Origin: Balanoglossus misakiensis | Taxonomy: Eukaryota > Animalia > Hemichordata | Direction of reading: 5' to 3' | Assembly: GCA_040954595.2 (NCBI GenBank) | Contig: CM082598.2 | Coordinates: forward strand, 5,719,097-5,783,096 | DNA: 64,000 nt | In this document: in pieces, positions 192 to 54,800 of the stretch | How the letters are laid out: each line of letters starts with the position of its first letter | How positions within the stretch are numbered: position 1 is the first letter of the stretch | Translations under genes and position numbers: made by a program | Notes under the pieces: model-generated | What the model was told of the DNA's origin: nothing | The model's database searches: none | The model's input: the letters and a program-made list of their open reading frames with translations, nothing else

Positions 192-3100
192 GTTCTCATC
201 AATGCTGCAGGGGATGGTGACATTGCAAAAATCCAGTCGCTGATAGCTGATGGATATGATGTCAATGCAAGGGGTAAATTATACGTGGAGTATCACCTGA
301 TTGCCGTAAGTGTTTATATTTGCCTTTTGTACCACAATAACATAAATAAATGGTGTCTTGTATCAAACATAATTAATGGAAAAAGGGCGGCGAGGGAGAG
401 ACTTTGTCCCTTTAACCGCATATCTATGACTGCAGCTCACTGTAATGAATTCCTAGAGGTTTATAGTTAAATGTCAAGTGCTTGACACATATGCAAATTT
501 TTAGTATCAGATTTGTGATGTCATTTTTATTCTTCGTTCCAGGATTTAACAGCATTGCATGCAGCGTCCTTGAAAGGTGGATTGGATACTATGAGTGTGT
601 TGATTTCCCATGGTTCAGATGTCAATGCTAAGACTGAGGTACATGAACTAACAAGTTATTACTTCATTATGGACAAAAATGGCTTCATGTGTATTTATGT
701 ATTTATGACCACAGTGAACTCTGGATAATTCTTTGATTGACATCATATGAACATTACAAAACATTAATTTTGTTTTTAGCTGAATAATCACTTTTGTGGG
801 AATACCTTCATTGTGTCTAACTTCTACTGGTTTATGCTTATCAACATTTATTTGTTTGTTAAAGGAAATTTCACCTTATATTTCAATTTTTGTGACATTG
901 TTCTCATGCTCCTCCTTCATTACTTACAGGATGGAAACACACCTTTGCACTCTGCAGCACAGTATGGTGATGAAGGCCGTGTCAGATTGTTATTGGAACA
1001 CAAAGCTGATGCTAACATACAAAACAAGGTAAATACCAACCTGACTTCTACAGGTTTATTCTAATCTGATCGACATACCGGTACAAACATTTGTTTGTGT
1101 CTTTGTTTGTTTGTTTTGTTTAAAGGAAACCTCACGTTACATTTGAATTTTTGTGACATTGTTCTCATGCTCCTCCTTTCATTACTTACAGTGGGGAAAC
1201 ACACCTTTGCACTTTGCAGCAGTGGATAGTGATGAAGGCCGTGTCAGATTGTTATTGGAACACAAAGCTGATGCTAACATTCAAAACATGGTAAAATACC
1301 AACCTGACTTCTACAGGTTAATTCTAACCAACATACAAACATTTTGTTTGTTTGTTTGTTTAAAGGAAAGCTCACAGTACATTTCAATTTTTGTGACATT
1401 GTTCTCATGCTCCTCCTTCATTACTTACAGGATGGAGGCACACCTTTGCACTTTGCAGCCATGTATGTTGATGAAGGCCGTGTCAAATTGTTATTGGAAC
1501 ACAAAGCTGATGTGACCATACAAAACAAGGTAAATACCAACATGACTTCTACAGGTTAATTCTAACCAACATACAAACATTTTGTTTGTTTGTTTGTTTG
1601 TTTGTTTGTTTGTTTGTTTGTTTAAAGGAAACCTCACAGTACATTTCAATTTTTGTGACATTGTTCTAATGCTCCTCCTTCATTACTTACAGGATGGAAA
1701 CACACCTTTGCACTATGCAGCAAGGTATGGTGATGAAGGCCTTGTCAAATTGTTATTGGAACACAAAGCTGATGCTAACATACAAAACGAGGTAAATACC
1801 AACATGACTTCTACAGGTTTATTCTAATCAACATACAAACATTTGTTTGTTTGTTTTGTTTACTTATTTCAGGAGACCTCACAGTACATTTCAATTGTTG
1901 TGACATTGTTCTCATGCTCCTCCTTCATTACTTACAGAATGGAGACACACCTTTGCACTCTGCAGCAAGGTATGGTGATGAAGGCCTTGTCAAATTGTTA
2001 TTGGAACACAAAGCTGATGCTAACATACAAAACGAGGTAAATACCAACATGACTTCTACAGGTTTATTCTAATCAACATACAAACATTTGTTTGTTTGTT
2101 TTGTTTACTTATTTAAGGAGACCTCACAGTACATTTCAATTGTTGTGACATTGTTCTCATGCTCCTCCTTCATTACTTACAGGGTGGAGACACACCTTTG
2201 CACTATGCAGCAACGGATGGTGATGAAGGCCGTGTCAGATTGTTATTGAAACACAAAGCTGATGCTAACATTCAAAACAAGGTAAATGCCAACCTGACAT
2301 CTACAGGTTTATTCTAATCAACATACAAAACTTGTTTGTTTGTTTTGTTTACTTATTTAAGGAGACCTCACCTTGCATTTCAATTGTTGTGACATTGTTC
2401 TCATGCTCCTCCTTCATTACTTACAGAATGGAAACACCCCTTTGCACTTTGCAGTAGCAAGGTTCTGCGATGAAGGTCATGTCAAATTGTTATTGGAACA
2501 CAAAGCTGATGCTAACATACAAAACAAGGTAAATACCTATACAGACACAAATAATTGTCTGTTTGTTTGTTTATTTTTATCTCTTTATTATTTTAACATA
2601 GCGAAACTCTTCATGAAATTGATGCTTATATACTGTAGAAATTGTTATTGGAACTCAAATCAAACTATTGATGTACCGGTATTTATAGTCAGTTTCATTC
2701 TACATTTCACGTTTGTTTTGAAGACATTTAATGTAGAAATCGTTATTGTAAAGAAGATATGGTGACAGTTTTAGATTACTCTTTCAGTTCATCTTTCAAC
2801 AAACTGAAACTTATAAAGCCTATTTAGAGGAGATACCAACCACTATGGTTTCCTCATTTTGGAGTTTTGTTTTGCGTCCTTTGCAACCACTACCACCACC
2901 ATTGTAGGTTGGTACTGCAGGTATGTTTTGTGGCACTGTTTATACGCACCTATAGTCCCGATCTTGCTGTATCTCCTACATGATGTACTTGCTTTTGTTG
3001 TTTTGCACAGGATGGCGACACAGCACTCCACATGGCAGCAATGGGCGCCACTTGGAGGGATTATGGAAAAGTTGTGAAACTGTTGTTGCAATATGGAGCT

Positions 3101-6100
3101 GATCTTGACCGCAAAAATAAGGTACAATCTTCTATTGCTTATTTCAATATTTTATTCCATTAAACTGACACCATACGATCGGATTAACTCCCATTTTTAA
3201 AATTGAATCTTCACAACCATTGAATTTGAAATTCAGTTTGTATGACTGTACAATTTTGAATTATCAGTTGGTAATACCAGCAGTTATTAATTATAGTATT
3301 AGCTTATCAATATCAACATCATAATTGATAGTTACTTCTATCCCAATAAACTTTAGACTGGAAAGACACCACTTAATGTTGCTGCAAATAGGTCTGTTAA
3401 GAATGTGCTGTTGGATTACATTAGGGTGAGTAAAATTTTTCTTTTGTCATGAATTTGAATAATTTATAACCTGAAATCTTATGTACCCTGCATTAAGAGT
3501 GTCCATAAATATCAATGTAATAATTTGTTACATGTATTTTCTGATTTCTTTATTTAACAAGAAACGAGATGAGTTCAATGACCTGATGAAGGAATCAGGT
3601 ATGGAATGTGACACTTTTAAGTTGTTCTTCGCTGGAGATGGTGGAGTTGGTAAGACTACACTGTTGAAGTCACTTCAGAAGGTATGTTTGTATTTATTTT
3701 TTGTGTAACAGTTCTAGTATGCCATAACATCATAATACATTCACATTGTATGTATAGTGCATATTAGGAAACTACTGACAGAATGCCACAGGTGAACTTT
3801 TGATAATTAAAACATGCATTGTTGATGAAATTTCGACATTTTGTGTAGGTATATAGTGAAATTTTTTTCTTTCACTTTTCCTTATCAAAGAGTGAAGAAA
3901 TAACCCTGGGATCTGAAGAAAGTGAACATATTCCCACACCTGGTATTGATGTCCAAAGTGTTCATATTCCTGACGTAGGAAATGTCAGTGTTTGGGATTT
4001 TGCCGGCCAGGCTGAGTATTACGTCACTCATAACATGTTTCTGGGAGCACCCAATGCTGTCTCCATATTGGTGTTCAAAGCTACAGACGAGAATGGTCAA
4101 CTCAACACCTTTGAAGGTGTGTTCCCACAGGTAAGAACCTTCACAAAAAAATTACTAAACATGCATGAAACTGGAAGGCCATATGTATTGCATCCCAAGG
4201 CAGAAGAAAGTGACCATTCACAAAATATCAATTCTTGAATTATAATCTCATATTCATGATCCCTTTAAATTTGCCTCAAAATTAATACATGTATACTATT
4301 TCATTATACAAATATTCTCATTTGTAGATTTTGTTTTGGTTGCGGTTTCTGAAAGGAACAACCCACATGGACAGGTATTCATTCGATGAGCCCAGTGAAA
4401 GATACAAGAAACCAGTGGTGATATTGGTTGCAAGTCGAGCTGATCAGTTGAAGAGAGTTGATATGGCTCTAGGTGAGTGTTGTCAACTCAGGCACAAACT
4501 GTACAATGTCAACATGTGTTGTTCAACTGTTGGCAAACTGATTGACAGTAAGAAGAACACATGTAGTACTGTTGTTGGACATGTCAAAGTTTGAAAAAAA
4601 CAACCAGCTATTACTGTGTCCATTTTAAGCTCTAGCTATCTGTCAAGGAAAAGTTTCACAGCTGAACTTTATGCCTTACATTCTACAAATCAAATTATGC
4701 AGCAATTAGATTTGTGTTATAATTTCACAGCTCGTCATATGCTGAAGGAACTTCTGACAAGAGCACAGGAAATGTTTCAGGACTATTTGGACATAGTGAA
4801 TAACGTATTTCTGGTAAATTGCCGTGATTCTACAGACAGTGAAATGAAGCAAGTCCGTGCCTGTTTACACCAGAAAAAGGTAACAATATTCTGCTGAACT
4901 CAATATTGCCTCTGAATTGTTCTACCTTTATAAACACACAAACACATTATAATTCACTTTAGTTACCGTACAATTACAAGATTCAGTTTCATAATTCCTC
5001 GTTGAAAAAATGCAAAGACTCAAACTGTTGGCAACATATTACCAATGTATGTTTGATAACCTTTGCTTAAAGCGCGTAGCTCGTCTCACACGCATGTTCC
5101 AACTGTAGCCGCTGGTTACAGACGTTTAGTGAACATTCAATCTGTCCTAACAACAGAGAAGATGGCGGCGACCATAATCTGTGTCGGAGATCGGGAAAAG
5201 ACACCAGCTGGGGTGAAAAGGAGGGACAAAACCAGAATCTACTTATACGGTGCGCATGAAATATGGAAGGAAGTGAAGGCACAGTCCACAATTTGAATGC
5301 ATCGAATGGAAAATTTGCTGGGAAGTTACGCGCATGCGCATGAGACGAGCTACACTCTTTAAGCACCACTTGCAAATGATTAGGTTACATATTTATCCAA
5401 TATTATAGGAGCCACCAATATATGGTAACATAACATAGTCACATTTGACAAATATGTGATTACCTCCTTGTGTTTTATTCATCAGTTGTAAGACTTACTT
5501 GACAAATTATGCTGTTATTTAATATTTCTTGTTGTAATTTTTAGACAGTAAAAACACTTCCAAGTGTGTGTGCCAAGATAATGGAAAAGAAGAGGGAATT
5601 ATATGATGACTTCCCAGCTCTTTATTGGACAGAATATGTGACAAGAATCAAAGAAATATACCCCACGGTTGACGAAAGTTTCTTACAAAAAGCCACCAAC
5701 TATATGCATGACATTGGAGAGGTCAGTAACAAGAAACACCTTATTTCTTATCCATTCTCTTTCAGTACAAATACTAGGCTGAGTGAATGTGATATTTCCA
5801 TCAGTTACAAATTATTGTCTCTTCAGAAATCCGCAATGGCGTTTTGTAATGTAAAATTGTCTCACTGTATGATTGTAATTATTTGTGGTTTTGGGTCCCC
5901 AGCATTTCAGAATAATATTGCAAAATTACCAAATATTATTTTAAGATGACACCGAATCCCTGCAGTCGAAGCCTTGGGGACTTAAAGATTAAACTATCCA
6001 AATTGGCATACATTAATGTGCAACATGAAAATGTATCAAAATGTTTCTTTTCTTTTGTATAGCTTTTGTTTGTGAAGAAGTCATCTTCGGAAAGAGAAGA

Positions 6101-7670
6101 TGTCTTGGTATTGGATCCAAACTGGTTGTGTTACAGGATATTTGGACCAATGTTGGCTACCCCTCTATTTGCACAGTTCAGTTCCAGATTCAAGAGAGAT
6201 TGCTTTCAGACGATGGATCAGATTGAAGATGTACTTGGTGAAGGTGTAAACAGCAAACTTCTGATCGACCTTCTGGAAGATTTTGAGCTTCTCTGTCCAG
6301 CAAAGGGCATCACAAATACTGGAGGGAAACTTTTCTTCATACCAGGGCTTCAAGACGAAGACATGCCTAAAGATCAATGGAAATTGAATCGCATGAAGAC
6401 AATCTACCGTGGAATACGGTTTGAATGCCACGATCAAACAGATTCCTTCACGGCAGGCTTTTTCCCAAGATTACAAACCCGTCTATATAAGCATTTCACA
6501 GAGCTTGGCCAACCGCCCAGTGGCTTATGGAGAAATGGTATCAAAGTGTGCCATGATGTTGAAGGTCTTGTCTTTATGACCAATGGCAGAAGGGCAGTCA
6601 ATGTCTGTGTACGAGTTGAAGACAAGAAGTTGATTGGTGAGGGCTACAAGCTTCTTGAGATGGTTTCCAAAGACATACAGGATGTCTTCTCAATTGCCTG
6701 TCCAGGCAACAGGATGAATCAGCTTATCCTGAGTGCAGATTCTCTTGCAAACCACGACATGGAACAAGTTGGGTTTTACACTCTTGATGACGTGCTACAC
6801 GCAGAAGATATGGGGAGGAAAGTGTACAACAAAGAAGTTGGTAAAGCAGAAGATGTTTGTGACCTGCTTTGTCAAGGTCATGACACGACAATGTTACTGA
6901 AGAAGTGGAAACGCTGTGATATCAAATGGATGCTTGAAGAAACCAGAAGAAAACTGACAAGGAGAATGCAGACTCAACGTGATCCTTCTCTGAGCTATGG
7001 GCGCATGGCAGATTTGATGGGCATTAAGTGCCAGGATACCATGGGATTTGAAGAGATTGCGGGTCGGGCAGGCCAACCAGTTACAGAGTATCTCTTTGAA
7101 GAGTGGTGTCGTATATGCGCAGAAAAGAAACGACTTCAACGGGAAAAAGACACCACAGAATTCCCGGCCACTTCTCATGACACACATGATGTTGATAGTG
7201 GTTTTGCAACGATGTCACCATCATCACAACAACCAGACTCAAGCGTCCAATTCCGACGAGGAAAAGACACCACTACAGCTGCAGAATTCCGGACCACTTC
7301 TCATGACACACAAAATGTTGATAGTGGTTTTGCAACGATGTCACCGTCATCACAACAACCAGACCCAAGCGTCCAATTCCGACGAGGAAAAGACACCACC
7401 ACAGCTGCAGGTGCCAGAGCCATCTCACATGACATAGAGACCTCCGAAGGTCGTTCAGCAAAAATGTCACACTCATCAACATCGTCACCCCAACAAGATT
7501 CTGATGAAGAAGTGAATGCTCAGAGAACAAGACGGAAGTATCCACATTTAAAGGGACCTGTCTTCGAAAGCAACTTTGAGAATCTGTTGGCAATATTCAG
7601 CACCATGGGAAGAGAGGACATGATCGGATTGATTGAAGAGATGTTCGAGAAATTGGAAGAACGCAGATAG
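192..7670 (+). CDS. ANK-Roc-COR-death domain (kinase-less DAPK1-like ROCO) protein, copy 1, 5'-partial (~1174 aa in window)
   Basis: Exons 192-305, 543-638, ANK 930-1028, 1192-1290, 1431-1529, 1693-1791, 1938-2036, 2183-2281, 2427-2528, then 3011-3121, 3357-3425, 3562-3681, 3891-4130, 4328-4472, 4731-4879, 5545-5721, 6063-7670. All GT-AG and in frame. P-loop GDGGVGKTT, G2 TPGID, G3 WDFAGQ, COR motif HDIGE..VLDPNWL, DD-like C-terminus. Confidence 0.88.
880..2540 (+). repeat. Tandem array of 7 single-ankyrin exon+intron modules (~245 bp)
   Basis: Repeated cattacttacag|xGxTPLHxAAxxGDEGRVRLLLEHKADANIQNK|gtaaatacc with (GTTT)n in the introns. Confidence 0.95.
5071..5358. mobile_element. 288-bp non-autonomous DNA transposon, Kolobok-like, unit 1 only
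   Basis: TTAA on both sides (5067-5070, 5359-5362); TIRs agcgcgtagctcgtctca / tgagacgagctacactct; absent at ~28325 and ~56825. Confidence 0.75.
7146..7400 (+). repeat. In-frame 126-nt (42-aa) coding duplication, copy 1 only
   Basis: gatagtggttttgcaacgatgtcacc at 7194 and 7320; single copy in units 2 and 3. Confidence 0.9.
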
Positions 7671-13763: not shown

Positions 13764-13848
13764 TAGCTCTGCGTACAGGTCTGTGTGTTCCCGGCGTTAC
13801 ACGGCCTCCATGTAACGCCGGGAACACACAGACCTGTACGCAGAGCTA
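13764..13848. mobile_element. 85-bp perfect-hairpin MITE with 9-bp TSD, unit 1 only
   Basis: 38-bp perfect inverted arms, 9-nt loop; gtgtcccac duplicated at 13755-13763 and 13849-13857; single gtgtcccac at the empty site ~37223. Confidence 0.9.
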
Positions 13849-19933: not shown

Positions 19934-20225
19934 ATTAACTTCTCTTTTGTCAGGTCACCACCCTCCTGTAGCTGATCAATGTAAAATTTGAATGTCATGG
20001 GTTATTCAACAGGGGGTGAGCGATCGCCATCACCTTGACTGTCCCTTGCTGATTGCATTTTGCGAGTCTTTAATAGAAAGTTGTCTGTTTGGTCTTGTGT
20101 TTGAAGTTTTTGAGACAGAGTCCTTAGATGGATTAACATTACATTGATGATCACAATCAGTGACATAAGATAAAGTTGGTGGGTTTTACAGCTTTTGGTG
20201 TGTTTTGGTGTGTTTCAGCTGCATG

Positions 20226-23200
20226 ATGGGCAATTTTTGTTGTAAGAAAACCAGGGCTTCTCAGAAATATGAAGACCTATGGGTAAGTGACCTTGTTGAA
20301 CTGAAGTTGCTGCTGTAGTGAAAATATAGTGAGTCTGTCTGTGAGAGGAAAATGTTAACATTAATTGTCATGGCATTAACAAGATTATGTATGACAATGA
20401 ACTAATTGTGAAATGTACATGTACATCACAGTATTAGTTTATAGCTACAATGATTGTAGCGGGTGCTGCTAGATTGACTGGTGTGTTTGCAGCCCTACTG
20501 CGCTACAAGGCCCTATGGGTAAATGCCCAATCAACTTTCTGCAGTGGATCTGTTGTCAACTCAGTTACAGGGTTGAACACTGACACCTGGTAAACTTTGA
20601 AAACGGCAAGGTTGAATCCCCCAAATAAACACCTCTGACACCCAAATTTTCCTGATTTTATTAAAATGCTGATAAATCCACTGAAGTTCAAACTTTATTT
20701 GAGCATATCCGCTACAATCATTGCAGCTATTGTTCTTCATGACCACAAGTTTATCGACGTACAAAACCCAAACCTTTGTGGAATGTTGTTGTTCTAATGG
20801 CATTTAAGTGGTTACCAGGGTTTTAAGCTTTTGGTGTGTTTTGGGGATATTTCAGGTACACCTATTAGAGAGTGAATCTGATGAGGAAACAACGGCTTTG
20901 CAGGAATATAAAGACCCAGAGGTTAGTGACCGTTGAACTGAAGTTATGGGCAGCTAGCTTGCGCTAGAGGAAATATTGTCTGTCTGATTGAGAGGAAACA
21001 CACAAGTACGTGTTTCAGAATAATGTCTTTCAGTATGCTGAGATTATTTATCATTCCTTTGCATTCTGTTTGTGAAGACTAATCATGGCCAAATGTTTAC
21101 CCATTGTATGATGTCATCTTTTTTTATCCACAGTGATATCACAGTTTAATTTTTTTGATTCACTTATTCATCAATGAAGATCTCAATGTTTTCGTATAAT
21201 ATAACTGCTGTTTATGATTTCATATTGAGAATATTTTGATAAAACAAGTGTTGCCTGTTGATTGTTACAGCTTCTCATCAATGCCGCAAGGGATGGTGAC
21301 ATTGCAGAGATTCAGTCGCTGATAGCTCATGGATATGATGTCAATGCAAGGGGGAGATTATACGTGGACGATGACCTGATTGCCGTAAGTGTTTATATTT
21401 GCCTTTTGTACCACAATAACATAAATAAATGGTGTCTTGTATCAAACATAATTAATGGAAAAAGGGCGTCGAGGGAGAGACTTTGTCCCTTTAACTGCAT
21501 ATCTATGACTGCAGCTCACTGTAATGAATTCCTAGAGGTTTATAGTTAAATGTCAAGTGCTTGACACATATGCAAATTTTTAGTATCAGATTTGTGATGT
21601 CATTTTTATTCTTCGTTCCAGGATTACACAGCATTGCATGCAGCGTCCTGGAGAGGTGGATTGGATACTATGAGTGTGTTGATTTCCCATGGTTCAGATG
21701 TCAATGCTAAGACTAGGGTACATGAACTAACAAGTTATTACTTCATTATGGACAAAAAAAATGGCTTCATGTGTATTTATGTCTTTATGACCACTGTGAT
21801 CTCTGGATAATTCTTTTATTGACATCATATGAACATTACAAAACATTAATTTTGTTTTTTAGCTGAATAATCATTTTTGTTGGAATACCTTCATTGTGTC
21901 TAACTTCTACTGGTTTATGCTAATCAACATTTATTTGTTTGTTCAAGAAAACTTCACATTTCATTTGAATTTTTGTGACATTGTTCTCATGCTCCTCCTT
22001 CATGACTTACAGGATGGAAACACACCTTTGCACTATGCAACAGCAAGGTATGGTGATGAAGGCCGTGTCAGATTGTTGTTGGAACACAAAGCTGATGCTA
22101 ACATACAAAACAAGGTAAACACCAACCTGACTTCTACAGGTTAATTCTAATCAACACACAAACATTTGTTTGTGTGTTTGTTTGTTTAATTAAGGAAACC
22201 TCACATTACATTTGAATTTTTGTGACATTGTTCTCATTCTCCTCCTTCATGACTTACAGGATGGAAACACACCTTTGCACTTTGCAGCAAGGAATGGTGA
22301 TGAAGGCCGTGTCAGATTGTTGTTGGAACACAAAGCTGATGCTAACATACAAAACAAGGTAAATACCCACCTGACTTCTACAGGTTTATTCTAATCAACA
22401 TACAAACATTTGTTTGTTTTTTGGTTATTTGTATGTTTAAGGAGACCTCACATTACATTTGAATTTTTGTGACATTGTTCTCATTCTCCTCCATTACTTA
22501 CAGAATGGAAACACACCTTTGCACTTTGCAGCAGCAAGGTATGGTGATGAAGGCCATGTCAGATTGTTATTGGAACACAAAGCTGATGCTAATATACAAA
22601 ACAAGGTAAATACCAACATGACTTCTACAGGTTAATTCTAATCAACACACAAACATTTGTTTTTGTGTTTGTTTGTTTAATTAAGGAAACCTCACATTAC
22701 ATTTGAATTTTTGTGACATTGTTCTCATTCTCCTCCATTACTTACAGGATGGAAACACACCTTTGCACTTTGCAGCAAGAGGGTATGGTGATGAAGGCCG
22801 TGTCAAATTGTTATTGGAACACAAAGCTGATGCTAACATACAAAACAAGGTAAATACCAACATGACTTCAACAGGTTTATTCTAATCAACATACAAACAT
22901 TTGTTTGTTTGTTTTGTTTACTTATTTAAGGAGACCTCACAGTACATTTCAATTTTTGTGACATTGTTCTCATGCTCCTCCTTCATTACTTACAGGATGG
23001 AAACACACCTTTGCACTTTGCAGCAAGGGATGGTGATGAAGGCCGTGTCAGATTGTTATCGGAACACAAAGCTGATGCTAACATACAAAACAAGGTAAAT
23101 ACCAACCTGACTTCAACAGGTTTATTCTAATCAACATACAAACATTTGTTTGTTTGTTTTGATTACTTATTTAAGGAGACCTCACAGTACATTTCAATTG

Positions 23201-26200
23201 TTGTGACATTGTTCTCATGCTCCTCCTTCATTACTTACAGGATGGAGACACCCCTTTGCATGATGCAGCAAGGTTTGGTGATGAAGGCCGTGTCAAATTG
23301 TTATTGGAACACAAAGCTGATGCTAACATACAAAACAAGGTAAATACCAACATGACTTCAACAGGTTTATTCTAATCAACATACAAACATTTGTTTGTTT
23401 GTTTTGATTACTAATTTAAGGAGACCTCACAGTACATTTCAATTGCTGTGACATTGTTCTCATGCTCCTCCTTCATTACTTACAGGTTGGAGACACACCT
23501 TTGCACTATGCAGCAGCAAAGTCTGGTGCTGAAGGCCGTGTCAGATTGTTATTGGAAAACAAAGCTGATGCTAACATACAAAACAAGGTAAATACCAACC
23601 TGACTTCTACAGGTTTATTCTAATCTGATCGACATACAAACATTTGTTTGTTTGTTTTGTTTACTTATTTAAGGAGACCTCACAGTACATTTCAATTTTT
23701 GTGACATTGTTCTCATGCTCCTCCTTTCATTACTTACAGGGTGGAGACACACCTTTGCACTATGCAGCAAGGTATGGTGATGAAGGCCGTGTCAAATTGT
23801 TATTGGAACACAAAGCTGATGCTAACATACAAAACAAGGTAAATACCAACCTGACTTCTACAGGTTTATTCTAATCTGATCGACATACAAATATTTGTTT
23901 GTGTGTGTGTTTGTTTGTTTGTTTGTTTGTTTGTAAGGAAACCTCACATAACATTTCAATTTTGTGACATTGTTCTCATTCTCCTCCTTCATTACTTACA
24001 GGATGGAAACACACCTTTGCACTTTGCAGCAAGGAATGATGATGAAGGCCGTGTCAGATTGTTATTGGAACACAAAGCTGATGCTAACATACAAAACAAG
24101 GTAAATACCAACCTGACTTCTACAGGTTAATTCTAATCAACATACAAACATTTGTTTGTGTCTTTGTTTGTTTGTTTGTTTGTATTAAAGGAAACCTCAC
24201 ATAACATTTCAATTTTTGTGACATTGTTCTCATTCTCCTCCTTCATTACTTACAGGATGGAAACACACCTTTGCACTCTGCAGCAAGGAATGGTGATGAA
24301 GGCCGTGTCAGATTGTTATTGGAACACAAAGCTGATGCTAACATACAAAACAAGGTAAATACCAACCTGACTTCTACAAGGTTTATTCTAATCAACATAC
24401 AAACATTTGTTTGTGTCTTTGTTTGTTTGTTTGTTTGTAAGGAAACCTCACATAACATTTCAATTTTTGTGACATTGTTCTCATTCTCCTCCTTTATTAC
24501 TTACAGGGTCTTTGTTTGTTTGTTTGTTTGTAAGGAAACCTCACATAACATTTCAATTTTTGTGACATTGTTCTCATTCTCCTCCTTCATTACTTACAGG
24601 ATGGAAACACACCTTTGCACTCTGCAGCAAGGAATGGTGATGAAGGCCGTGTCAGATTGTTATTGGAACACAAAGCTGATGCTAACATACAAAACAAGGT
24701 AAATACCAACATGACTTCTACAGGTTAATTCTAATCAACATACAAACATTTTGTTTGTTTGTTTGTTTGTTTAAAGGAAACCTCACAGTACATTAATTTT
24801 TAAATTTTTGACATTGTTCTCATGCTCCTCCTTCATTACTTACAGGATGGAGACACACCTTTGCACTTTGCAGCAGAGGATGGTGATGAAGGCGGTGTCA
24901 GATTGTTATTGGAACACAAAGCTGATGCTAACATACAAAACAAGGTAAATACCAACCTGACTTCTACAAGGTTTATTCTAACCAACATACAAACATTTTG
25001 TTTGTTTGTTTGTTTGTTTGTTTGTTTAAATGAAACCTCACAGTACATTAATTTTTAAATTTTTGACATTGTTCTCATGCTCCTCCTTCATTACTTACAG
25101 GATGGAGACACACCTTTGCACTTTGCAGCAAGGGATGGTGATGAAGGCCGTGTCAGATTGTTATTGGAACACAAAGCTGATGTGACTATACAAAACAAGG
25201 TAAATACCTATACAGACACAAATAATTGTCTGTTTGTTTGATTATTTTTATCTCTTTATTATTGTCACATAGCGAAACTCTTCATGAAATTGATGTTAAT
25301 CTACTGTAGAAATTGTTATTGGAACTCAAATCAAACTATTGATGTACCGGTATTTATAGTCAGTTTCATTCTACATTTCACGTTTGTTTTGAAGACATTT
25401 ATGTAGGGATCGTTATTGTAAAGAAGATATGGTGACAGTTTTAGATTACTCTTTCAGTTCATCTTTCAACAAACTGAAACTAAAAGCCTATTTAGAGGAG
25501 ATACCAACCACTACAGTTTCCTCATTTTGGAGTTTTGTTTTGCATCCTTTGCAACCACTACCACCACCATTGTAGGTTGGTACTGCAGGTATGTTTTGCG
25601 GCACTGTTTATACGCACCTATAGTCCCGATCTTGCTGTATCTCCTACATGAAGTACTTGCTTTTGTTTTTTTGCACAGGATGGCGACACAGCACTCCATA
25701 TGGCAGCAATGGGCGACTCTTGGAGACAGGATTATGTTGTGAAACTGTTGCTGCAATATGGAGCTGATATTGACTGCAAAAATAAGGTACAATCTTCTAT
25801 TGCTTATTTCAATATTTTATTCCATTAAACTGACACCATACGTTCGGATTAACTCCCATTTTTAAAGTTGAATCTTCAGAACCATTGAATTTGAAATTCA
25901 ATTTGTATGACTACAATTTTATCAGAATGTTTCAACAAAACCGTATGAAGTTGATGCAATTATAATGTTCAGCAAATAGTACTTTCCCAATCCATTGTTT
26001 TTGTTGTTGATAAATTGGACTTTGGGCATTGGACTCTCTCACAGTCCCCCTCGCCGCCTATGCATATACTTATGGTCTGGTTGCATGTGTGTCGCTACAC
26101 CATGGTTCTTCTCCTTTGCTAAACGGTTGAGGGCGCGTTAGTGTACAACTACAACATGGAAAGAACCTAGTAGCAAACCGTGGGCTGTGAGAGAGTCTAT

Positions 26201-29200: not shown

Positions 29201-30851
29201 GGAATCAAATGGTTTAGATAATTCATTATCAGTGGCATACTGTAGTCCCCACTGGAGCAATAGAAATGAAATTATTGAAGTTCCAAATACAGTTGTTGTG
29301 TAATTCAGTATTTAAGGATTGTGCCTTGCATACATTCATGTATCAAAATATTTCTTTTCTTGTGTACAGCTTTTGTTTGTGAAGAAGTCATCTTCGGAAA
29401 GAGAAGATGTCGTGGTATTGGATCCAAACTGGTTGTGTTACAGGATATTTGGACCAATGTTGGCCACCCCTTTATTTGCAGAATTCAGTTCCAGATTCAA
29501 GAGAGATTGCTTTCAGACGATGGATCAGATAGAAGATGTACTTGGTGACCGTGTAAACAGCAAACTTCTCATCGACCTTCTGGAAGATTTTGAGCTTCTC
29601 TGTCATGCACATGGCCTCACAAAGACTGGAGAGAAACTTTTCGTCATACCAGGGCTTCAAGACGATGATATGCCTGAAGGCCATTGGGAGAAGAGCGAAG
29701 TGAAGACAATTTACCTTGGAAGACGATTCGAATGCCACGATAAAACAGATTCCTTTACGGCAGGCTTTTTCCCAAGATTACAGACCCGTCTATATAAGCG
29801 TTTCACCAACCTTGGCCATCCGCCCAGTGGCTTATGGAGAAATGGTATCAAAGTGTGTCATGAAGTTGAAGGTCTTGTCTTTATGACCAATGGCAGAAGG
29901 GCAGTCAATGTCTGTGTACGAGTTAAAGACAAGAAGTCGATTGGTGAGGGCTACAAACTTCTTGAGATGGTTTCCAAAGAAGTACATGATGTCTTCTCGA
30001 TCGCCTGTCCAGGCAACAGGATGAATCAGCTTATCCTGAGTGCAGATTCTCTTGCAAACCACAGCAATGTAGAAAAAATACCATTTTACACTCTTGATGA
30101 CGTACTACGTGCAGAAGACATGGGAAAGAAAGTTTACAACAAAGAAGTCGGTGAAGCAGAAGATGTTTGTGACCTGCTTTGTCAAGGTCATGACACAACG
30201 ATCTTACGACATAAATGGAAATACTGTGATATCAAATGGATGCTTGAAGAAACCAGAAAAACACTGACTGAGAGAATGGACATTCAACGTGCACCATCTT
30301 TGCACTATGCCCTAATGGCAGAAAAATTCATGGGAATCGTCTACCAAGATGTCAGGGCATTTGAAGAGATGTCGGCAAAAACAGGCATACCAGTTACAGA
30401 ATACATCTTTCAAGAGTGGTGTCGTAGATGGGTAGGGACAAGACGTCTTCAATGGGAAAAAGACACAGAACTCCTGACCACTTCTCATGACACATGTAAT
30501 GTTGATAGTGGTTTTGCAACGATGTCACCATCATCTGAACAACCAGACTCGAGTGTCCAATTCCGACGAGGAAAAGACACCACTACAGCTGCAGGTTCCA
30601 GAGCCATCTCACCTGACATAGAGACCTCCGAAGGTCGTTCAGCAAAAATGTCACACTCATCAACATTGTCACCCCAACAAGATTCTGATGAAGTGGAGGC
30701 TCAGAAAACAAGACGGAAGTATCCACATTTAAAGGGACCTGTCTTCGAAAGCAACTTTGAGAATCTGTTGGCAATATTCAGCACCATGGGAAGAGACGAT
30801 ATGGTCGGATTGATTGAAGAGATGTTCGAGAAATTGGAAGAACGCAGATAG
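20226..30851 (+). CDS. ANK-Roc-COR-death domain ROCO protein, copy 2, complete model (~1375 aa)
   Basis: Exons 20226-20282 (MGNFCCKK..), 20856-20921, 21271-21384, 21622-21717; 13 ANK exons starting 22013, 22260, 22504, 22748, 22996, 23241, 23486, 23740, 24002, 24256, 24600, 24846, 25101; then 25679-25786, 26587-26661, 26812-26931, 27137-27376, 27597-27741, 27991-28139, 28558-28734, 29370-30851; open throughout. Confidence 0.85.
21960..25210 (+). repeat. Tandem array of 13 single-ankyrin exon modules plus one exon-less module
   Basis: Same ~245-bp module as unit 1; extra 93-bp intron-end duplication at 24415-24600. Confidence 0.95.
26030..26199. mobile_element. ~170-bp TIR element in ROCO copy 2 intron
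   Basis: gactctctcacag ... ctgtgagagagtc inverted ends; not present in the matching intron sequence at ~53120. Confidence 0.6.
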
Positions 30852-38582: not shown

Positions 38583-39936
38583 CTATCAAAATCGATACTC
38601 TCCAGTTTGAAGCTGGCTACACCATCGACACAGACACCCCCGTGAACATTTCATTTTGGGTCGTACTTTCCAACAGCAAAAACCAAGAAGAAACTGTGAC
38701 CGAATCTGACGCGAGTGCCTTCCTGTCTGTCAATAACTCGCGATCCACCACGACTGTTTTCTCGGTCGTTTTCCCGGGCGGTGATGTGACTCTGCCCGCC
38801 AAGGGCTCGGAGAACATCACGGGGGTGGCAACGTACGTGATAGCCGACGTCACAGCAAACTGTACAGTTTATGAACAACTGTGCCTGCAAGTTGAGAACG
38901 ACGTAGAGTGTGACGACGACCGGCAGAAGATTGTGTGCCCCCTGACCACTCCGGAAACCATCACCACCCCTAGCGAGTTTTATCCTTTTTGAACAAAAAT
39001 CGAGCTTGTGGTCTTGTTTGAGATTATTTTTTTTAAATGACGCTGAAAAAATATAACTTGATGCAAAATTGTGGTTTGTTTGGAACGTCAACTCTGATGC
39101 GTACATCAAGACACGATTTTCTTTTCTATATATAAAGAAAGCTGATATATTCCATACAGTGTAACGTAAGGAACATCCAGAATTATTCAGGTTGAAAATG
39201 GACAATTGCGCATGCGTTATACGATTTCGGATTTTAATTCATCTGTCAATCATAGTAATCTGTTTGCACTGCGCATGTGTTGAGATGCAGCACGTTTTTT
39301 GAAGAGGGGTCAATGAATAGATGACTTTCCACTCGTTGTGAGATCTCACGTGACTTGGTTCATTACCGTGGCAACGGGTTGCTAGCTAAGTTATACAAGT
39401 TAAGCTTTGTATGAAACTAGAATAGCTGCAGAGTACAGTTGAACAAAAATTGTAACTTTTGAGCCGTTTAACATGTTGTAACCTGTTTCACGTGAAAATG
39501 TTCTTTCATACATGATATCTACCCACGCGAGATCTCGTAGGGTCTCGTGGAGTTCGAAAATGGTCTATTGTGGTTAATGTACTGGGTGACCTGAAGTCCC
39601 TCGGCCCACTATATCCTCGTGCACTCCACCCATTCCTCAATAATATAAACCCTTTACAAATAAGTCTAGAAATTGTAGACAGCATCACGTTAACGGATCA
39701 GCTAGTCTTTTATGAATGCGTATTGGTAAAGTGACCCCCCCCCTCTAAAGGTCAATTCGTGCCCAGGTGTTTGTTTTCTTACTTTGGCGTGACGATAACA
39801 TATTATTCCTGTTCTTTTATTTCCTTCAGAACCAAGCAGCGCTGGCACTGCGCATGTGCATATTGGTGCTATTGTTGCCATGGTGATATCACTTCTAGTG
39901 GTTGGCATCAACGGTGACGTGAAGTGGACGATGTAA
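38583..39936 (+). pseudogene. Two 3' exons of a probable secreted GPI-anchored/membrane glycoprotein, inside a 2.3-kb segment (38521-40788) absent from unit 1
   Basis: Acceptor at 38581-82; GC-richer ORF with NIS/NNS/NIT/NCT sequons, 4 Cys and a Thr/Pro stalk; GC donor gcgagt after 38972; exon 39830-39936 PSSAGTAHVHIGAIVAMVISLLVVGINGDVKWTM*; no 5' exon found. Confidence 0.55.
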
Positions 39937-44371: not shown

Positions 44372-44476
44372 GTGAGTGAGTGAGTGGGTGCTCGTATATT
44401 AGAAGGTGAGTCAGTCAGCCTTGTCAACTAATGAGTTGATCACTGAATGGAGTTAAAAAATGCAAATAAGTATGAC

Positions 44477-45879: not shown

Positions 45880-48800
45880 ATGGGAAATTTTTGTTGTAAG
45901 AAAGCCAGGGCTTCTCAGAAATATGAAGACCTATGGGTAAGTGACCTAGTTGAACTGAAGTTGCTGCTGTAGTGAAAAAGTAGTCTGTCTGTGAGAGGAA
46001 AATGTTAACATTAATCAGTCGCATCGATGACCCATATTAGGAGCTGCTTATTAGCATAAAAATTAACATATCATTAATATGTAGAACGCGATCTGACCAA
46101 TGACGCGCCCGGAAAGCCGCGCCTCCCACCCATTTCCCCGCCCTTTGTTAAGAAAATCACGACCTTTTCTTTTCAAATGTAAATTTTGGGGTCAAATACG
46201 CTGTTTGGGGATATCCCGTCAATTGAAAATAAGAAAGTACGAGTCAAACTTGCTACCGGGTTAATAAGAAAATTTTTCACCAGTGCTTTTGTGAAATATT
46301 TAATTTTGATTTTGGCGTCTACGCTATTTTTTGAGGAATTTGCCTGAAAGACAGCGTTATTAGACAGAGCATGTAGATTGAATGCATTCATCGAGAGCCA
46401 AGGTTTCTTAGTGACGGTGATCACCTGACTTGTCTACTAGCTGGTATATCACCGCGCACAGCAACCAAAGCAAAATAAAGCGACATGCACCCCCAAAAGA
46501 CATACATGTACTAGTATACTGTTAATAGACAGTTACATGTAAACAACGCCGTTGTCATAGGTCAAAGGGTACGATTGAGTCCCGTTTTTTTCCGTGACGA
46601 GTTTCAGTGTGATGCAAAATATTCAATTCAGTCGCATAAATAAAATCAATAGATAAATGTAATAACTGTCTACTGGTACTTGTCTTTTGAATGATGTATG
46701 GCCCTGAAGAAAGGTCGAGTGTTTTGGTTGCGGTGATACCAGTCAGGTGACCACCGTCACTTCATTTCATGCATCAGTCTGTCTAATACCAGGTCGCCAT
46801 CTTTCAGGCAAATTCCTCAAAAAATAGCGTAGACGCCAGAATCAAAATTAAATATTTCACAAAAGCACTGGTGAAAAATTTTCTTATTAACCCGGTAGCA
46901 AGTTTGACTCGTACTTTCTTATTTTCAATTGACGGGATATCCCCAAACAGCGTATTTGACCCCAAAATTTACATTTGAAAAGAAAAAGTCGTGATTTTCT
47001 TAATAAAGGGCGGGGAAATGGGTGAGAGGCGCGGCTTTCCGGGCGCGTCATTGGTCAGATCGCGTTCTACATATTAATGATATGTTAATTTTTATGCTAA
47101 TAAGCAACTCCTAATATGCGACTGTTAACAAGATTATGTATGACAATGAACTAATTGTGAAATGTACATGTACATCACAGTATTAGTTTATAGCTACAAT
47201 GATTGTAGCGGGTGCTGCTAGATTGACTGGTGTGTTTGCAGCCCTACCGCGCTACAAGGCCCTATGGGTAAATACCCAATCAACTTTCTGCAGTGGATCT
47301 GTTGTCAACTCAGTTACAGGGTTGAACACTGACACCTGGTAAACTTTGAAAACGGCAAGGTCGAATCCCCCAAATAAACACCTCTGACACCCACATTTTC
47401 CTGATTTTATTAAAATGCTGATAAATCCACTGATTCTTAGTTCAAACTTTATTTGAGCATATCCGCTACAATCATTGCAGCTATTGTTCATCATGACCAC
47501 AAGTTTATCGACGGACAAAACCCAAACCTTTGTGGAATGTTGTTGTTCTAATGGCATTTAAGTGGTTACCAGGGTTTTAAGCTTTTGGTGTGTTTTGGGG
47601 ATATTTCAGGTACACCCAACAGAGAGTGAATCTGATGAGGGAACAACGGCTTTGCAGGAATATAATGACCCACAGGTAAGTGACTTTAGGTGTTTCAGAA
47701 TAATATAAGTATAGTGAGATTATTCATGATGCTATTGTACTGTTTTTGATGGACAAAATACTTTGTGTTTTGGGGATATTTCAGGTACACCCAACAGACA
47801 GTGAATCTGATGAGGGAACAACGGCTTTGCAGGAATATAATGACCCACAGGTAAGTGACTTTAGGTGTTTCAGAATAATATAAGTATATATAGTGAGATT
47901 ATTCATGATGCTATTGTACTGTTTTTGATGGACAAAATACTTTGTGTTTTGGGGATATTTCAGGTACACCCAACAGACAGTGAATCTAATGAGGGAACAA
48001 TGGCTTGGCAGGAATATAATGACCCACAGGTAAGTGACTTTAGGTGTTTCAGAATAATATAAGTATAGTGAGATTATTCATGATGCTATTGTACTGTTTT
48101 TGATGGACAAAATACTTTGTGTTTTGGGGATATTTCAGGTACACCCAACAGACAGTGAATCTGATGAGGGAACAACGGCTTTGCAGGAATATAATGACCC
48201 ACAGGTAAGTGACTTTAGGTGTTTCAGAATAATATAAGTATAGTGAGATTATTCATGATGCTATTGTACTGTTTTTGATGGACAAAATACTTTGTGTTTT
48301 GGGGATATTTCAGGTACACCCAACAGACAGTGAATCTAATGAGGGAACAATGGCTTGGCAGGAATATAAAGACCCAGAGGTTAGTGACCGTTGAACTGAA
48401 GTTATGGGCAGCTAGGTTGCGCTAGAGGAAATATTGTCTGTCTGATTGAGAGGAAAACTTTAAATTGTAACACTCAAGTATGTGTTTCAGAATAATGTCT
48501 TTCAGTATGCTGAGATTATTTATCATTCCATTGCATTCTGTTTGTGAAGAGTAATCATGGCCTTACTTTACCCATTGTATGATGTCATCTTTTTTTTATC
48601 CACGGTGATATCGCAGTTTAATTGTTTTCACAATTTTTCATCATTGAAGATTTCCATGTTTTCCTATAATATTACTGCTGTTTATGATTTCATATGGAGA
48701 ATATATTGATAAAACAAGTGTTGCCTGTTGATTGTTACAGGTTCTCATCAATGCTGCAGGGGATGGTGACATTGCAAAAATCCAGTCGCTGATAGCTGAT

Positions 48801-51800
48801 GGATATGATGTCAATGCAAGGGGTGAATTATACGTGGACGACCTGTTTGCCGTAAGTGTTTATATTTGCCTTTTGTACCACAACAATAACACACGGATAA
48901 CTACACATATGAAACAGCAAAGAATTTGAACTCTACTATCAAAATTTTCAAGACTATCTCTGCATCATTTTTGGCCCATTATTGTACTCCCCATCGTCAA
49001 TCAAAGATTTATTTTAACTGCATATCTATGACTGCAGCTCACTGTAATGAAATTTCTAGAGGTTAATAGTCAAACGTCAAGTGCTTGACACATATGCAAA
49101 TTTTTAGTATCAGATTTGTGAATGTCATTTTTATTCTTCGTTCCAGGATTTAACAGCATTGCATGCAGCGTCCTGGAGAGGTGGATTGGATACTATGAGT
49201 GTGTTGATTTCCCATGGTTCAGATGTCAATGCTAAGACTGGGGTACATGAACTAACAAGTTATTACTTCATTATGGACAAAAAAATGGCTTCATGTGTAT
49301 TTACACAGTGATCTCTGGATAATTCTCTTATTGACATCATATGAACATTACAAAACATTAATTTTCTTTTTTAGCTGAATAATCACTTTTGTTGGAATAC
49401 CTTCTACAGGTTAATGCTAATCAACATTTATTTGTTTGTTTAAGGAAATTTCACCTTATATTTCAATTTTTGTGACATTGTTCTCATGCTCCTCCTTCAT
49501 TACGTACAGGATGGATACACCCCTTTGCACTTTGCAGCAGCACAGTATGGTGATGAAGGCCGTGTCAGATTGTTATTGGAACACAAAGCTGATGCTAACA
49601 TACAAAACAAAGTAAATACCAACCTGACTTCTACAGGTTTATTCTAATCTGATCGATATACAAACATTTGTTTGTGTCTTTGTTTGTTTGTTTTGTTTAA
49701 AGGAAACCTCACGTTACATTTGAACTTTTGTGACATTGTTCTCATGCTCCTCCTTTCATTACTTACAGGGTGGAGACACACCTTTGCACTATGCAGCAGC
49801 AAGGTATGGTGATGAAGGCCGTGTCAGATTGTTATTGAAACACAAGGCTGATGCTAACATTCAAAACATGGTAAATACCAACATGACTTCTACAGGTTTA
49901 TTGTAATCATCATACAAACATTTGTTTGTTTTGTTTATTTATTTAAGGAGACCTCACCTTGCTTTTCAATTTTTGTGACATTGTTCTCATGCTCCTCCTT
50001 CATTACTTACAGAATGGAGACACACCTTTGCACTTTGCAGCAGGGTTTGGTGATGAAGGCCGTGTCAAATTGTTATTGGAACACAAAGCTGATGTAACCA
50101 TACAAAACAAGGTAAATACCAACATGACTTCTACAGGTTTATTCTAATCAACATACAAACATTTGTTTGTTTGTTTTGTTTACTTATTTAAGGAGACCTC
50201 ACAGTACATTTCAATTTTTGTGACATTGTTCTCATGCTCCTCCTTCATTACTCACAGGGTGGAGACACACCTTTGCACTTTGCAGTAAGGTTTGGTGATG
50301 AAGGCCGTGTCGGATTGTTATTGGAACACAAAGCTGATGTAACCATACAAAACAAGGTAAATACCAACCTGACTTCTACAGGTTAATTCTAATCAACATA
50401 CAAACATTTGTTTGTTTGTTTTTATTTATTTAAGGAGACCTCACAGTACATTTGAATTTTTGTAACATTGTTCTCATGCTCCTCCTTCATTACTTACAGG
50501 ATGGAAACACACCTTTGCACTTTGCAGCAAGGTATGGTGATGAAGGCCGTGTAGGATTCTTATTGGGACACAAAGCTGATGTAACCATACAAAACAAGGT
50601 AAATACCAACCTGACTTCTACAGGTTAATTCTAATCAACATACAAACATTTGTTTGTTTGTTTTTATTTATTTAAGGAGACCTCACAGTACATTTGAATT
50701 TTTGTGACATTGTTCTCATGCTCCTCCTTCATTACTTACAGGATGGAAACACACCTTTGCACTTTGCAGCAAGGTATGGTGATGAAGGCCGTGTAGGATT
50801 GTTATTGGGACACAAAGCTGATGTAACCATACAAAACAAGGTAAATACCAACCTGACTTCTACAGGTTTATTCTAATCAACATACAAACATTTGTTTGTT
50901 TTTTGGTTATTTGTATGTTTAAGGAGACCTCACATTACATTTCAATTTTTGTGACATTGTTCTCATGCTCCTCCTTCATTACTTACAGGATGGAAACACA
51001 CCTTTGCACTTTGCAGCAAGGGATGGTGATGAAGGCCGTGTCAGATTGTTATTGGGACACAAAGCTGATGTAACCATACAAAACAAGGTAAATACCAACA
51101 TAACTTCTACAGGTTAATTCTAATCATCATACAAACATTTTTTTGTTTGTTTGTTTTGTTTATTTATTTCAGGAGACCTCACCTTGCATTTCAATTTTTG
51201 TGACATTGTTTTCATGCACCTCCTTTCATTACTTACAGGATGGAGACACACCTTTGCACTATGCAGCAGGGTGTGGTGATGAAGGCCGTGTCAGATTGTT
51301 ATTGGAACACAAAGCTGATGTGACCATACAAAACAAGGTAAATACCAACATGACTTCTACAGGTTAATTCTAATCATCATACAAACATTTGTTTGTTTGT
51401 TTGTTTTGTTTATTTATTTCAGGAGACCTCACGTTACATTTGAATTTTTGTGACATTGTTCTCATGCTCCTCCTTTCATTACTTACAGGTTGGAAACACA
51501 CCTTTGCACTTTGCAGCAAGGAATGGTGATGAAGGCCGTGTCAGATTGTTATTGGAACACAAAGCTGATGTGACCATACAAAACAAGGTAAATACCAACA
51601 TGACTTCTACAGGTTAATTCTAATCAACATACAAACATTTGTTTGTGTGTTTGTTTTGTTTATTTAAGGAAACCTCACATTACATTTGAATTTTTGTGAC
51701 ATTGTTCTCATGCTCCTCCTTCATTACTTACAGGATGGAGACACACCTTTGCACTTTGCAGCAAGGTATGGTGATGAAGGCCGTGTAGGATTGTTATTGG

Positions 51801-54800
51801 GACACAAAGCTGATGTAACCATTCAAAACAAGGTAAATACCAACCTGACTTCTACAGGTTAATTCTAATCATCATACAAACATTTGTTTGGTTATTTGTA
51901 TGTTAAAGGAGACCTCACATTACATTTGAATTGTTGTGACATTGTTCTCATGCTCCTCCTTCATTACTTACAGGATGGAGACACACCTTTGCACATTGCA
52001 GCAAGGTATGGTGATGAAGGCTGTGTCAGATTGTTATTGGAACACAAAGCTGGTGCTAACATACAAAACAAGGTAAATACCCACCTGACTTCTACAGGTT
52101 TATTCTAATCAACACACAAAAACTTGTTTATTTGTTTTGTTTATTTATTTAAGTCGACCTCACCTTGCATTTCAATTTTTATGACATTGTTCTCATGATC
52201 CTCCTTCATTACTTACAGAATGGAGACACACCTTTGCACTTTGCAGCAAGGAATGGTGATGAAGGCCGTGTCGGATTGTTATTGGAACACAAAGCTGATG
52301 TAACCATACAAAACAAGGTTAATACCTATACAGACACAAATAATTGTCTGTTTGTTTGTTTATTTTTATCTCTTTATTATTTTAACATAGCGAAACTCTT
52401 CATGAAATTGATGCTAATATACTGTAGAAATTGTTATTGGAACTCAAATCAAACTATTGATGTACCGGTATTTATAGTCAGTTTCATTCTACATTTCACG
52501 TTTGTTTTGAAGACATTTATGTAGGGATCGTTATTGTAAAGAAGATATGGTGACAGTTTTAGATTACTCTTTCAGTTCATCTTTCAACAAACTGAAACTT
52601 ATAAAGCCTATTTAGAGGAGATACCAACCACTATACCACTACAGTTTCCCTATAAGGCAACCACTACCACCCCCACCACTATTATATATGGTACTACCGT
52701 ACAGTTCTGTTTTGCAGCACCCAGTCCCTATCTTGCTGTATCTCTTACATGAAGTATCTGCTTTTGTTTTTTTTTGCACAGGATGGTGACACAGCACTCC
52801 ACATGGCAGCAATGGGCGACTCTTGGAGACAGGATTATGTTGTGAAACTGTTGCTGCAATATGGAGCTGATATTGACTGCAAAAATAAGGTACAATCTTC
52901 TATTGCTTATTTCAATATTTTTTTCCATTAAACTGATACCATGCGTTCGGATTAACTCCCATTTTTAAAGTTGAATCTTCACAACCATTGAATTTGAAAG
53001 TCAGTTTGTATGACTGTACAATTTTATCAAAATGTTTCAACAAAGCAGTATGAAGTTGATGCCATATATTCAGCATTATACGGTAGTACGTTCCCATTAT
53101 AGTTGTTGATAAATTGGAGTAGGGCATATACAAATTCTTCAATATCAAATGACGTCAGACGCGCTCAGGCACAGTCAGATTGTTATTGGAACACAAAGCT
53201 GATGCTAACATTCAAAACAAGGTAAATACCAACCTGACTTCTACAGGTTAATTCCAATCAACATACAAACTTTTGTTAACTCATTTAAGGAGACCTCAGT
53301 ACATTTGAATTTTTGTGACATTGTTCTCATGCTTCTCCTTCATCACTTACAGGATGGAGAAACACCTTTGCACAAGGCAGCAGCAAGGGTTGGTGATGAA
53401 GGCCGTGTCAGGTTGTTGTTGGAACACAAAGCTGATCCTAACATACAAAACAAGGTAAATACCAACCTGACTTCTATAGGGTATTGCTCATCAACATACA
53501 AACATTTGTTTGTGTACATGTGTTTGTTTGTTTAAAGGAAACCTCACATTACATTTGAATTTTTGTGACATTGTTCTCATGCTCCTCCTTCATCACTTAC
53601 AGGATGGAGACACACCTTTGCACAAGGCAGCAGCAGGGGATGGTGATGAAGGCCGTGTCAGATTGTTATTGGAACACAAAGCTGATGTTAACATACAAAA
53701 CAAGGTAAATACCTATACTGAATGATACAAATACATGACTGTTTGTTTGTTTATTTTAATCTCTTTATTTTTTTAATGTAGGTAAACTCTTCATGAAATT
53801 GATGCTAATATAGTGTAGAAATCTTTCATTACTAAAAGTATGGACACCTTTACAATGTGCAGCAATGAATACCATGTCAGATTGTTATTGAAACTCAAAT
53901 CAAACTTTGGATGTACCGGTATTCATAGTCAGTTTCATTCTACATATGTTTTTTTATTGAAGACATTTATGTAGAAATCGTTATTGTGAAGAAGATATGG
54001 TGACAGTTTTAGATTATTCTTTCAGTTCATCTTTCAACAAACTGAAACTAAAAGCCTACTTAGAGGAGATATGAACCACTACAGTTTCCTCATTTTGGAG
54101 TTTTGTTTTGCGTCCTTTGCAACCACCACCACCACCACTGTTATACCGGTATAAGTTGGTACTACAGGTATGTCCCTATCTTGCTGTATTTCTTACATGA
54201 AGTACATGTACTTGCTTTTGTTTCTTGGATAGGATGGCAACACAGCACTCCATGTGGCAGCAATGGATGACTATAGGAGGGATTATGGGAAAGTTGTGAA
54301 ACTGTTGCTGCAATATGGACCTGATATTGACTGCAAAAATAAGGTAGAATCTTCTATTGCTTATTGCAATACTGATACCATGCGTTCGGATTAACTCCCA
54401 TTTTTAAATTTGAATCTTCACAACCATTGAATTTGAAATTCAGTTTGTATGACTGTACAATTTTGAATTATCAGTTGGTAATACCAGTTTTAACAGTTAT
54501 TAATAATAGTATTAGCTTATCAATATCAACATCATAATTGATAGTTACTTCTATCCCAATAAAATTTAGACTGGAAAGACACCACTTAATGTCGCTGCAA
54601 ATAGGTCTGTTAAGAATGTGCTGTTGGATTACATTAGGGTGAGTGTAATTTTTCTTTTGTCATGAATTTGAATAATTTATAACCTGAAATCTGCAAATTT
54701 AAGAGTGTCCATAAATATCAATGTAATAATTTGTTACATGTATTTTCTGATTTCTTTATTTAACAAGAAACGAGATGAGTTCAATGACCTGAGTAAGGAA

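Follow-up and report, generated by a model that had tools for sequence, protein, structure and literature searches.

What are three neighbouring GTPase genes of a hemichordate diversifying to bind, when each repeat of their cassette arrays is encoded by an exon of its own? The question is raised by a stretch of 64,000 nucleotides from Balanoglossus misakiensis (GenBank assembly GCA_040954595.2, contig CM082598.2, positions 5,719,097 to 5,783,096 of the forward strand; hereafter the window, within which all positions are counted). The window contains three copies of a 21-28 kb unit in which a plus-strand ROCO gene is accompanied by a minus-strand C2H2 zinc-finger gene, and the ROCO genes carry arrays of closely similar one-repeat ankyrin exons, here called cassettes. 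We found diversifying selection at five cassette codons, all on the concave, binding face of the ankyrin repeat. By analogy with known systems, we propose, with a probability of about 0.6, that the three genes may encode intracellular non-self sensors, with pathogens as the likeliest opponent and a repertoire that is likely renewed in the germline.

One ankyrin repeat per exon

A six-frame scan combined with a splice-site check identified 34 cassette exons in 930-53704, arranged as follows:

930..2528, + strand: gene 1 array of 7 cassettes, each one repeat long, in exon-intron units of about 245 bp
22013..25199, + strand: gene 2 cassette array, 13 exons
24415-24600, + strand: duplicated acceptor, 93 bp, without an exon, inside the gene 2 array
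49510..52317, + strand: gene 3 first cassette array, 12 exons
53353..53704, + strand: gene 3 second cassette pair, 2 exons

The cassettes were 99 nt (25 of 34) or 102 nt (9 of 34) long, contained no stop codons and, in all the arrays, belonged to exon-intron units of about 245 bp. All 34 had an AG acceptor, a GT donor and phase 0 at both ends, with nearly identical splice signals, and the introns between them measured 140-163 nt. These counts, lengths and phases are those given in an earlier reading of the bare sequence (the original prediction). The Pfam Ank model spanned positions 1-33 of a tested cassette exon, which is exactly one repeat. Mean pairwise identity was 91% in DNA and 81% in protein, and 33 of the 34 cassettes were distinct at both levels. 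The residues previously listed at codons 1, 3 and 8 and the 15 residue pairs at codons 11-12 matched our alignment, while the optional extra codon, described as Ala, was Ala in eight cassettes and Arg in one. The five-site words formed by codons 1, 3, 8, 11 and 12 numbered 28 among the 34 cassettes, built from a narrow alphabet of 5-8 residues per site that is reachable by point mutation.

The description of the framework as almost fixed, with few silent changes, had to be corrected. Protein identity was too low for it, and codons 13, 17, 19, 23, 28 and 29 vary too (proportion of nonsynonymous differences, pN, 0.11-0.27). Over the whole exon, pN was 0.091 and the proportion of synonymous differences (pS) 0.088, compared with a diversity of 0.093 in the flanking introns, so that silent change proceeds at the intron rate. 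Third positions were nearly fixed only at the five selected codons (32-34 of 34 each). The cassette framework is constrained only moderately.

Diversifying selection on the concave face

Sites were mapped with the surface classes in Table 1 of PMC8415598, whose numbering equals that of the exon codons. Variation was not evenly spread: pN was 0.206 at the eight concave positions, compared with 0.066 at convex, 0.062 at basal and 0.026 at core positions, and the concave excess was significant by permutation (p 0.002; p 0.009 among surface sites). All five selected codons were concave (p 0.0013 among surface sites), which places the codons named earlier on the binding face as had been supposed. 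Positions 1, 3, 8 and 33 are likely specificity determinants according to PMC8415598.

Codon models M1a and M2a were then compared in our own implementation under two trees and two frequency models. For the pooled cassettes, M2a was preferred with likelihood-ratio test (LRT) statistics of 48.0-53.8 in the four settings, and roughly a fifth of sites fell in a class with an omega (nonsynonymous to synonymous rate ratio) of 5.4-6.2. Posteriors were 0.97-1.0 at codons 1, 3, 8, 11 and 12, exactly those singled out in the original prediction. When the analysis was restricted to the 25 cassettes of 99 nt, the LRT was 36.5. Given that the cassettes recombine (four gametes at 19 of 105 site pairs), null data were simulated with recombination, using neutral and purifying sites on 1, 6 or 33 independent trees, with rate variation and up to free recombination. 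None of the 67 neutral simulations reached an LRT of 48, the maximum being 38.2, and the pooled selection result stands. The pN at the five selected codons was 0.307, three times the intron level. CpG hypermutation was considered as another source of change; it may explain codon 17 (CGT) but not the five selected codons, whose common alleles lack CpG.

Controls in the same unit and in another hemichordate

The zinc-finger genes, which are convergent with the ROCO genes in the same duplicated unit, served as a control:

8373-9935, - strand: C2H2 zinc-finger gene, about 7 near-identical 84-bp fingers
31600-33654, - strand: C2H2 zinc-finger gene, about 13 near-identical 84-bp fingers
60086-61224, - strand: C2H2 zinc-finger gene, about 2 near-identical 84-bp fingers

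For 18 finger repeats from two copies, pS was 0.109 and pN 0.003. Since this array is homogenised and yet has almost no nonsynonymous change, turnover of tandem repeats is not enough by itself to diversify a protein in this locus. In these genes the finger number varies, the finger sequence is fixed and the third copy is frameshifted. The ROC exons of the ROCO genes (pN 0.04, pS 0.08-0.10) are under purifying selection. The Glandiceps protein P0001 carries a homogenised array of its own, with a different two-repeat framework, and there the five sites defined in the window ranked first in summed entropy among all 237,336 sets of five sites (14 of 15 repeats, the last being omitted).

Gain and loss of cassettes by recombination

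Cassette number differs between the units despite flanks that are 97-98% identical, and gene 3 contains a rearranged segment:

52782..54343, + strand: gene 3 internal rearrangement (cap, truncated cassette, two cassettes, second cap)
52782-52889, + strand: gene 3 cap exon, protein identical to the gene 2 cap
53174-53221, + strand: gene 3 5'-truncated cassette
54233-54343, + strand: gene 3 second cap exon

The doubled cap and the truncated cassette are the footprint of an unequal crossover, and together with the four-gamete pairs they uphold the suggestion that cassettes are gained and lost by recombination. Intron divergence was 0.068 between adjacent cassette units, 0.093 on average within a gene and 0.100 between genes. 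A search for inverted cassettes gave no minus-strand match in the window, and a search for scattered copies gave one truncated plus-strand copy only.

The last exon is a mosaic, gene 2 being equal to gene 3 over codons 51-100. At 30270-30570, the first half of the gene 2 death domain differs strongly from those of genes 1 and 3 (pN 0.22-0.25, pS 0.41), which suggests that a less closely related paralogue served as donor in a conversion and that the adaptor is possibly a different one.

Domain architecture and proposed mechanism

All three ROCO models are free of internal stop codons and use GT-AG introns only:

192..7670, + strand: gene 1, kinase-less ANK-ROC-COR-death, 18 exons in the window, 1211 aa, 5' end outside the window, all introns GT-AG
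20223..30851, + strand: gene 2, 25 exons, 1376 aa
45877..59350, + strand: gene 3, 31 exons, 1532 aa
20223..20282, + strand: gene 2 predicted first coding exon, with the sequence (M)MGNFCCKK
20856-20921, + strand: gene 2 acidic linker exon, 66 nt, single copy
47610..48379, + strand: gene 3 acidic linker exon, 66 nt, phase 0, five copies
26812..28139, + strand: gene 2 ROC GTPase domain, spread over four exons, with the motifs GDGGVGKT, WDFAGQ and ASRAD
29370..30851, + strand: gene 2 last exon, COR and death domain split by a low-complexity insertion
58715..59350, + strand: gene 3 death domain, insertion of about 110 aa between helices 4 and 5, model pLDDT (predicted local distance difference test) 76.6

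They are intact tandem duplicates with a kinase-less ANK-ROC-COR-death-domain order, in which a predicted first coding exon, the acidic 66-nt exon and two N-cap ankyrin exons precede the cassettes, and two C-cap exons, ROC, COR and the death domain follow. The ROC, COR and death domains of the original prediction were all recovered. Pfam Roc matched one gene 1 exon, the counterpart of a gene 2 ROC exon, above the cut-off (E 1.2e-6), and the P-loop and DxxG motifs are intact in all three genes, by which the proteins are predicted GTPases. An NB-ARC match on the P-loop exon alone was below the cut-off, and the P-loop domain is assigned to ROC. COR follows ROC directly; Pfam COR-B matched all three genes, two of them above the cut-off, and the fold matches RocCOR 3DPU (E 2.3e-8). 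A model of the last 211 residues aligned with the death domain 3MOP_K (VIA Z 12.1, root-mean-square deviation 1.8, 93 aligned), and the top rows of a wide structural search were all death-fold domains; solved structures gave no match when searched with the last-exon sequence. The death-domain insertion of about 110 residues is of low complexity, and the hemichordate relatives have shorter ones at this position. In gene 1, a 126-bp duplication (7156-7478) lengthens the corresponding insertion by 42 residues. The search for a kinase exon in the window was negative: the motif scan gave only two matches, just after a stop codon, and the 5' end of gene 1 lies outside; the kinase-bearing relative P0132 matches the window protein over residues 1008-1349 only.

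Inspection revealed neither a signal peptide nor a transmembrane segment in the protein, which, with its GTPase and death domain, is predicted to be cytosolic. The gene 2 N-terminus MGNFCCKK is likely a myristoylation/palmitoylation anchor, judged by general motif rules. This assignment requires translation to start at the second ATG, whose initiation context is the better of the two.

In the proposed mechanism, the units exchange sequence by unequal crossover and gene conversion, which would add, delete and swap cassettes in frame while the framework stays stackable, and selection would keep new residues on the concave face. The signalling part is proposed by analogy with other ROCO and death-fold proteins. 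The ankyrin groove of the likely lipid-anchored protein would bind a protein that is foreign or altered, upon which the ROC-COR switch would change its nucleotide or dimer state. The death domain, exposed or clustered, would then recruit an adaptor for cell-death or NF-kB-type signalling.

Several further features were noted in the units, which differ from each other by 2-7% plus large insertions. The five copies of the gene 3 linker exon represent a second tandem amplification at the exon level. An insertion in a gene 3 intron (46033-47118) has inverted arms of 324 nt with 98% complementarity and is likely a non-autonomous DNA transposon. An open frame of 189 codons (38423-38992), at the edge of an insertion found in one unit only, gave no significant Pfam match. 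Stretches that resemble exons and have splice signals precede gene 2 (15900-18620) and recur upstream of gene 3; they are possibly 5' untranslated exons or a separate small gene.

Exon joins in sequence runs

Three runs of one sample (X1, X2 and X3), none recorded as RNA, contain the locus. Contigs of X3 join 27374>27595 and 28727>29368, the predicted ROC and COR exon borders of gene 2, and also join a cassette end to the start of another cassette (back 99, 48 letters per side, depth 6; depth 0 in X1 and X2). These joins at predicted borders, cassette to cassette included, are read as spliced. The X3 contigs are not identical to the window and possibly derive from paralogues, and which cassettes were joined cannot be told from them. 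In one X3 cassette, codon 1 encodes Tyr and codon 12 Trp, neither of which occurs there in the 34. Codons 3, 8, 11 and 12 account for 14 of the 23 differences listed for the cassette contigs, though the window's own cassettes are among these contigs. Contig depth over the cassettes is far above that of single-copy introns, although this depth is no measure of copy number. In X1, contigs agree with stretches of single-copy intron apart from 0-2 differences.

Weighing the explanations

Several results count against the proposal of diversified non-self sensors. Recombination inflated the selection test, 19 of the 67 null runs passing the nominal 1% level, and the per-gene LRTs (15-18) are therefore unsafe and insufficient alone. 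Omega is probably overestimated for the same reason, and the tree-free excess is only about 2.3-3.3 times the intron level. The non-concave codons 17 and 19 received posteriors of 0.6-0.85 in some settings, and in the less homogenised Ptychodera protein P0007 the five sites gave only p 0.06. The cassettes hardly cluster by gene, and gene-specific homogenisation was not significant (p 0.063). The death domain of the window had no Pfam Death match, a weak profile score and no Foldseek match below E 0.001. X3 is recorded only as 'DNA?', and since the one sample behind the three runs may be the source of the window, its joins are not independent support. Finally, positive selection does not name the opponent.

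This last point leads to the alternative that we rank next after pathogens, tentatively and well behind them, in which the same machinery meets another opponent, through allorecognition, gamete interaction or intragenomic conflict. Such opponents are indistinguishable by the sequence signal, and fungal NLRs with the same repeat regime do control allorecognition (PMC4986451). What tells against them is that the protein appears cytosolic and that its relatives bear CARD, caspase and GT4-conflict domains.

A repertoire could also arise within the individual, besides germline change, by cassette skipping or somatic recombination, which we regard as doubtful. Because of phase 0 and the nearly identical splice signals, any subset of cassettes would stay in frame; exon-skipping isoforms are reported for brown algal ROCO genes (PMC11378527), and the 28 five-site words also fit this reading. 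However, neither a skipping nor a somatic joint was seen in the contigs, which cannot phase across the shared framework, and the short introns with uniform signals fit plain inclusion. Nor does the window contain an inverted or orphan cassette pool, unlike Ectocarpus (PMC3341825). An anticipatory receptor system in an invertebrate deuterostome, with interchangeable ankyrin cassettes genome-wide that are recombined or alternatively spliced within the individual and wired to a GTPase switch and a death domain, appears similarly improbable. It would amount to a natural DARPin repertoire and, next to lamprey VLRs and arthropod Dscam, to a third way of building receptors from repeats.

Neutral drift and artefact are, even together, unlikely. 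Under the former, relaxed constraint at exposed positions and recombination in a neutral tandem expansion would mimic selection. An overall pN/pS of about 1, the recombining null runs that reached an LRT of 38 and the variation at convex and basal sites all speak for it; yet pN at the five codons is threefold that of introns whereas convex and basal sites, although just as exposed, remain near 0.06; the zinc-finger array lacks this kind of change, and the same sites recur in Glandiceps. We consider this explanation very unlikely. An assembly artefact, be it in the arrays or in the three units, would fit the lack of contigs that span an array but is less probable still, given the distinctness of the cassettes, the divergence and large insertions of the units, and the close match of X1 to the single-copy introns.

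Relatives and comparison with known systems

The nearest proteins are hemichordate models automatically named 'DAPK1-like'. A 27-row tree places the three genes with Ptychodera P0003 (51%; support 100/99) and Glandiceps P0001 (46%; support 97/93). Ptychodera clusters, P0007 included, account for 14 of the 25 matches to the Ptychodera sister protein, which marks an expanded family. Death, CARD, caspase or GT4-conflict domains are carried by 17 of the 30 relatives scanned, nearly all after ROC-COR, the named bearers being from amphioxus, starfish, crinoid and brittle star. Amphioxus and echinoderm relatives exchange C-terminal CARD, caspase and death domains. The amphioxus and starfish ANK-ROC-COR proteins P0018, P0019, P0021, P0023 and P0032 have C-terminal GT4-conflict, CARD, caspase or kinase domains, and the ankyrin repeats of P0018 are internally similar.

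If the proposal is true, the family would be an overlooked group of candidate cytosolic immune sensors in invertebrate deuterostomes, hidden under an automatic label. Its layout would be NLR-like but GTPase-based, with an ankyrin sensor, a ROC-COR switch and exchangeable death-fold effectors. It would extend to animals a receptor diversification known from brown algae and fungi, and it bears on the role of kinase-less ROCO proteins and the origin of DAPK1.

DAPK1 and the 'DAPK1-like' proteins of hemichordates, amphioxus and echinoderms share the ANK-ROC-COR-death order with the window genes, which differ from DAPK1 in having no kinase, 7-14 homogenised and selected repeats, and a death domain split by an insertion.

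Engineered DARPins are likewise built from a fixed-length module, and their variable sites in PMC10484509 correspond, by our own conversion, to exon codons 33, 1, 3, 11 and 12. Four of the five selected codons (1, 3, 11 and 12) coincide with them (p 0.001). The likeness to DARPins drawn in the original prediction therefore holds for these four sites and fails for codon 8, which is selected here and outside the DARPin list, and for codon 33, which is only weakly variable here. The cassettes are, moreover, natural and narrow in alphabet. They thus offer a natural test of DARPin design, in which selection hits nearly the same residues that engineers randomise, and each cassette could be expressed for ligand screening.

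No description of an animal ANK-ROCO version was found in the available parts of the literature searched (including PMC8195603 and PMC11463336), and older amphioxus immune-genome or ROCO surveys or supplements may note the expansion. The novelty claimed earlier is kept to this extent, whereas ankyrin arrays with concave selection are already known from fungal NLRs (PMC4986451). Highly conserved ANK repeats are rare in metazoans (0.8%; PMC4986451), and concerted repeat evolution in animals has been hypothesised to be linked to host-parasite conflict (PMC5100051).

The brown algal LRR-ROCO genes, proposed immune receptors with one repeat per exon and diversifying selection (PMC3341825, PMC11378527), resemble the window genes in the ROC-COR core, the symmetric one-repeat exons, the variable repeat number and selection on the concave face. 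The window genes differ in being animal genes, with ankyrin instead of leucine-rich repeats, a C-terminal death domain and a likely N-terminal lipid anchor, and in having none of the inverted intronic cassettes described in Ectocarpus (PMC3341825). The Podospora NLRs, such as Pa_3_8560, have homogenised ankyrin arrays that vary in repeat number, with five positively selected sites that are mostly concave (PMC4986451), as in the window. They combine these arrays with a NACHT ATPase and an N-terminal effector, whereas the hemichordate genes encode each repeat as its own exon and join the array to a ROC-COR GTPase and a C-terminal death domain.

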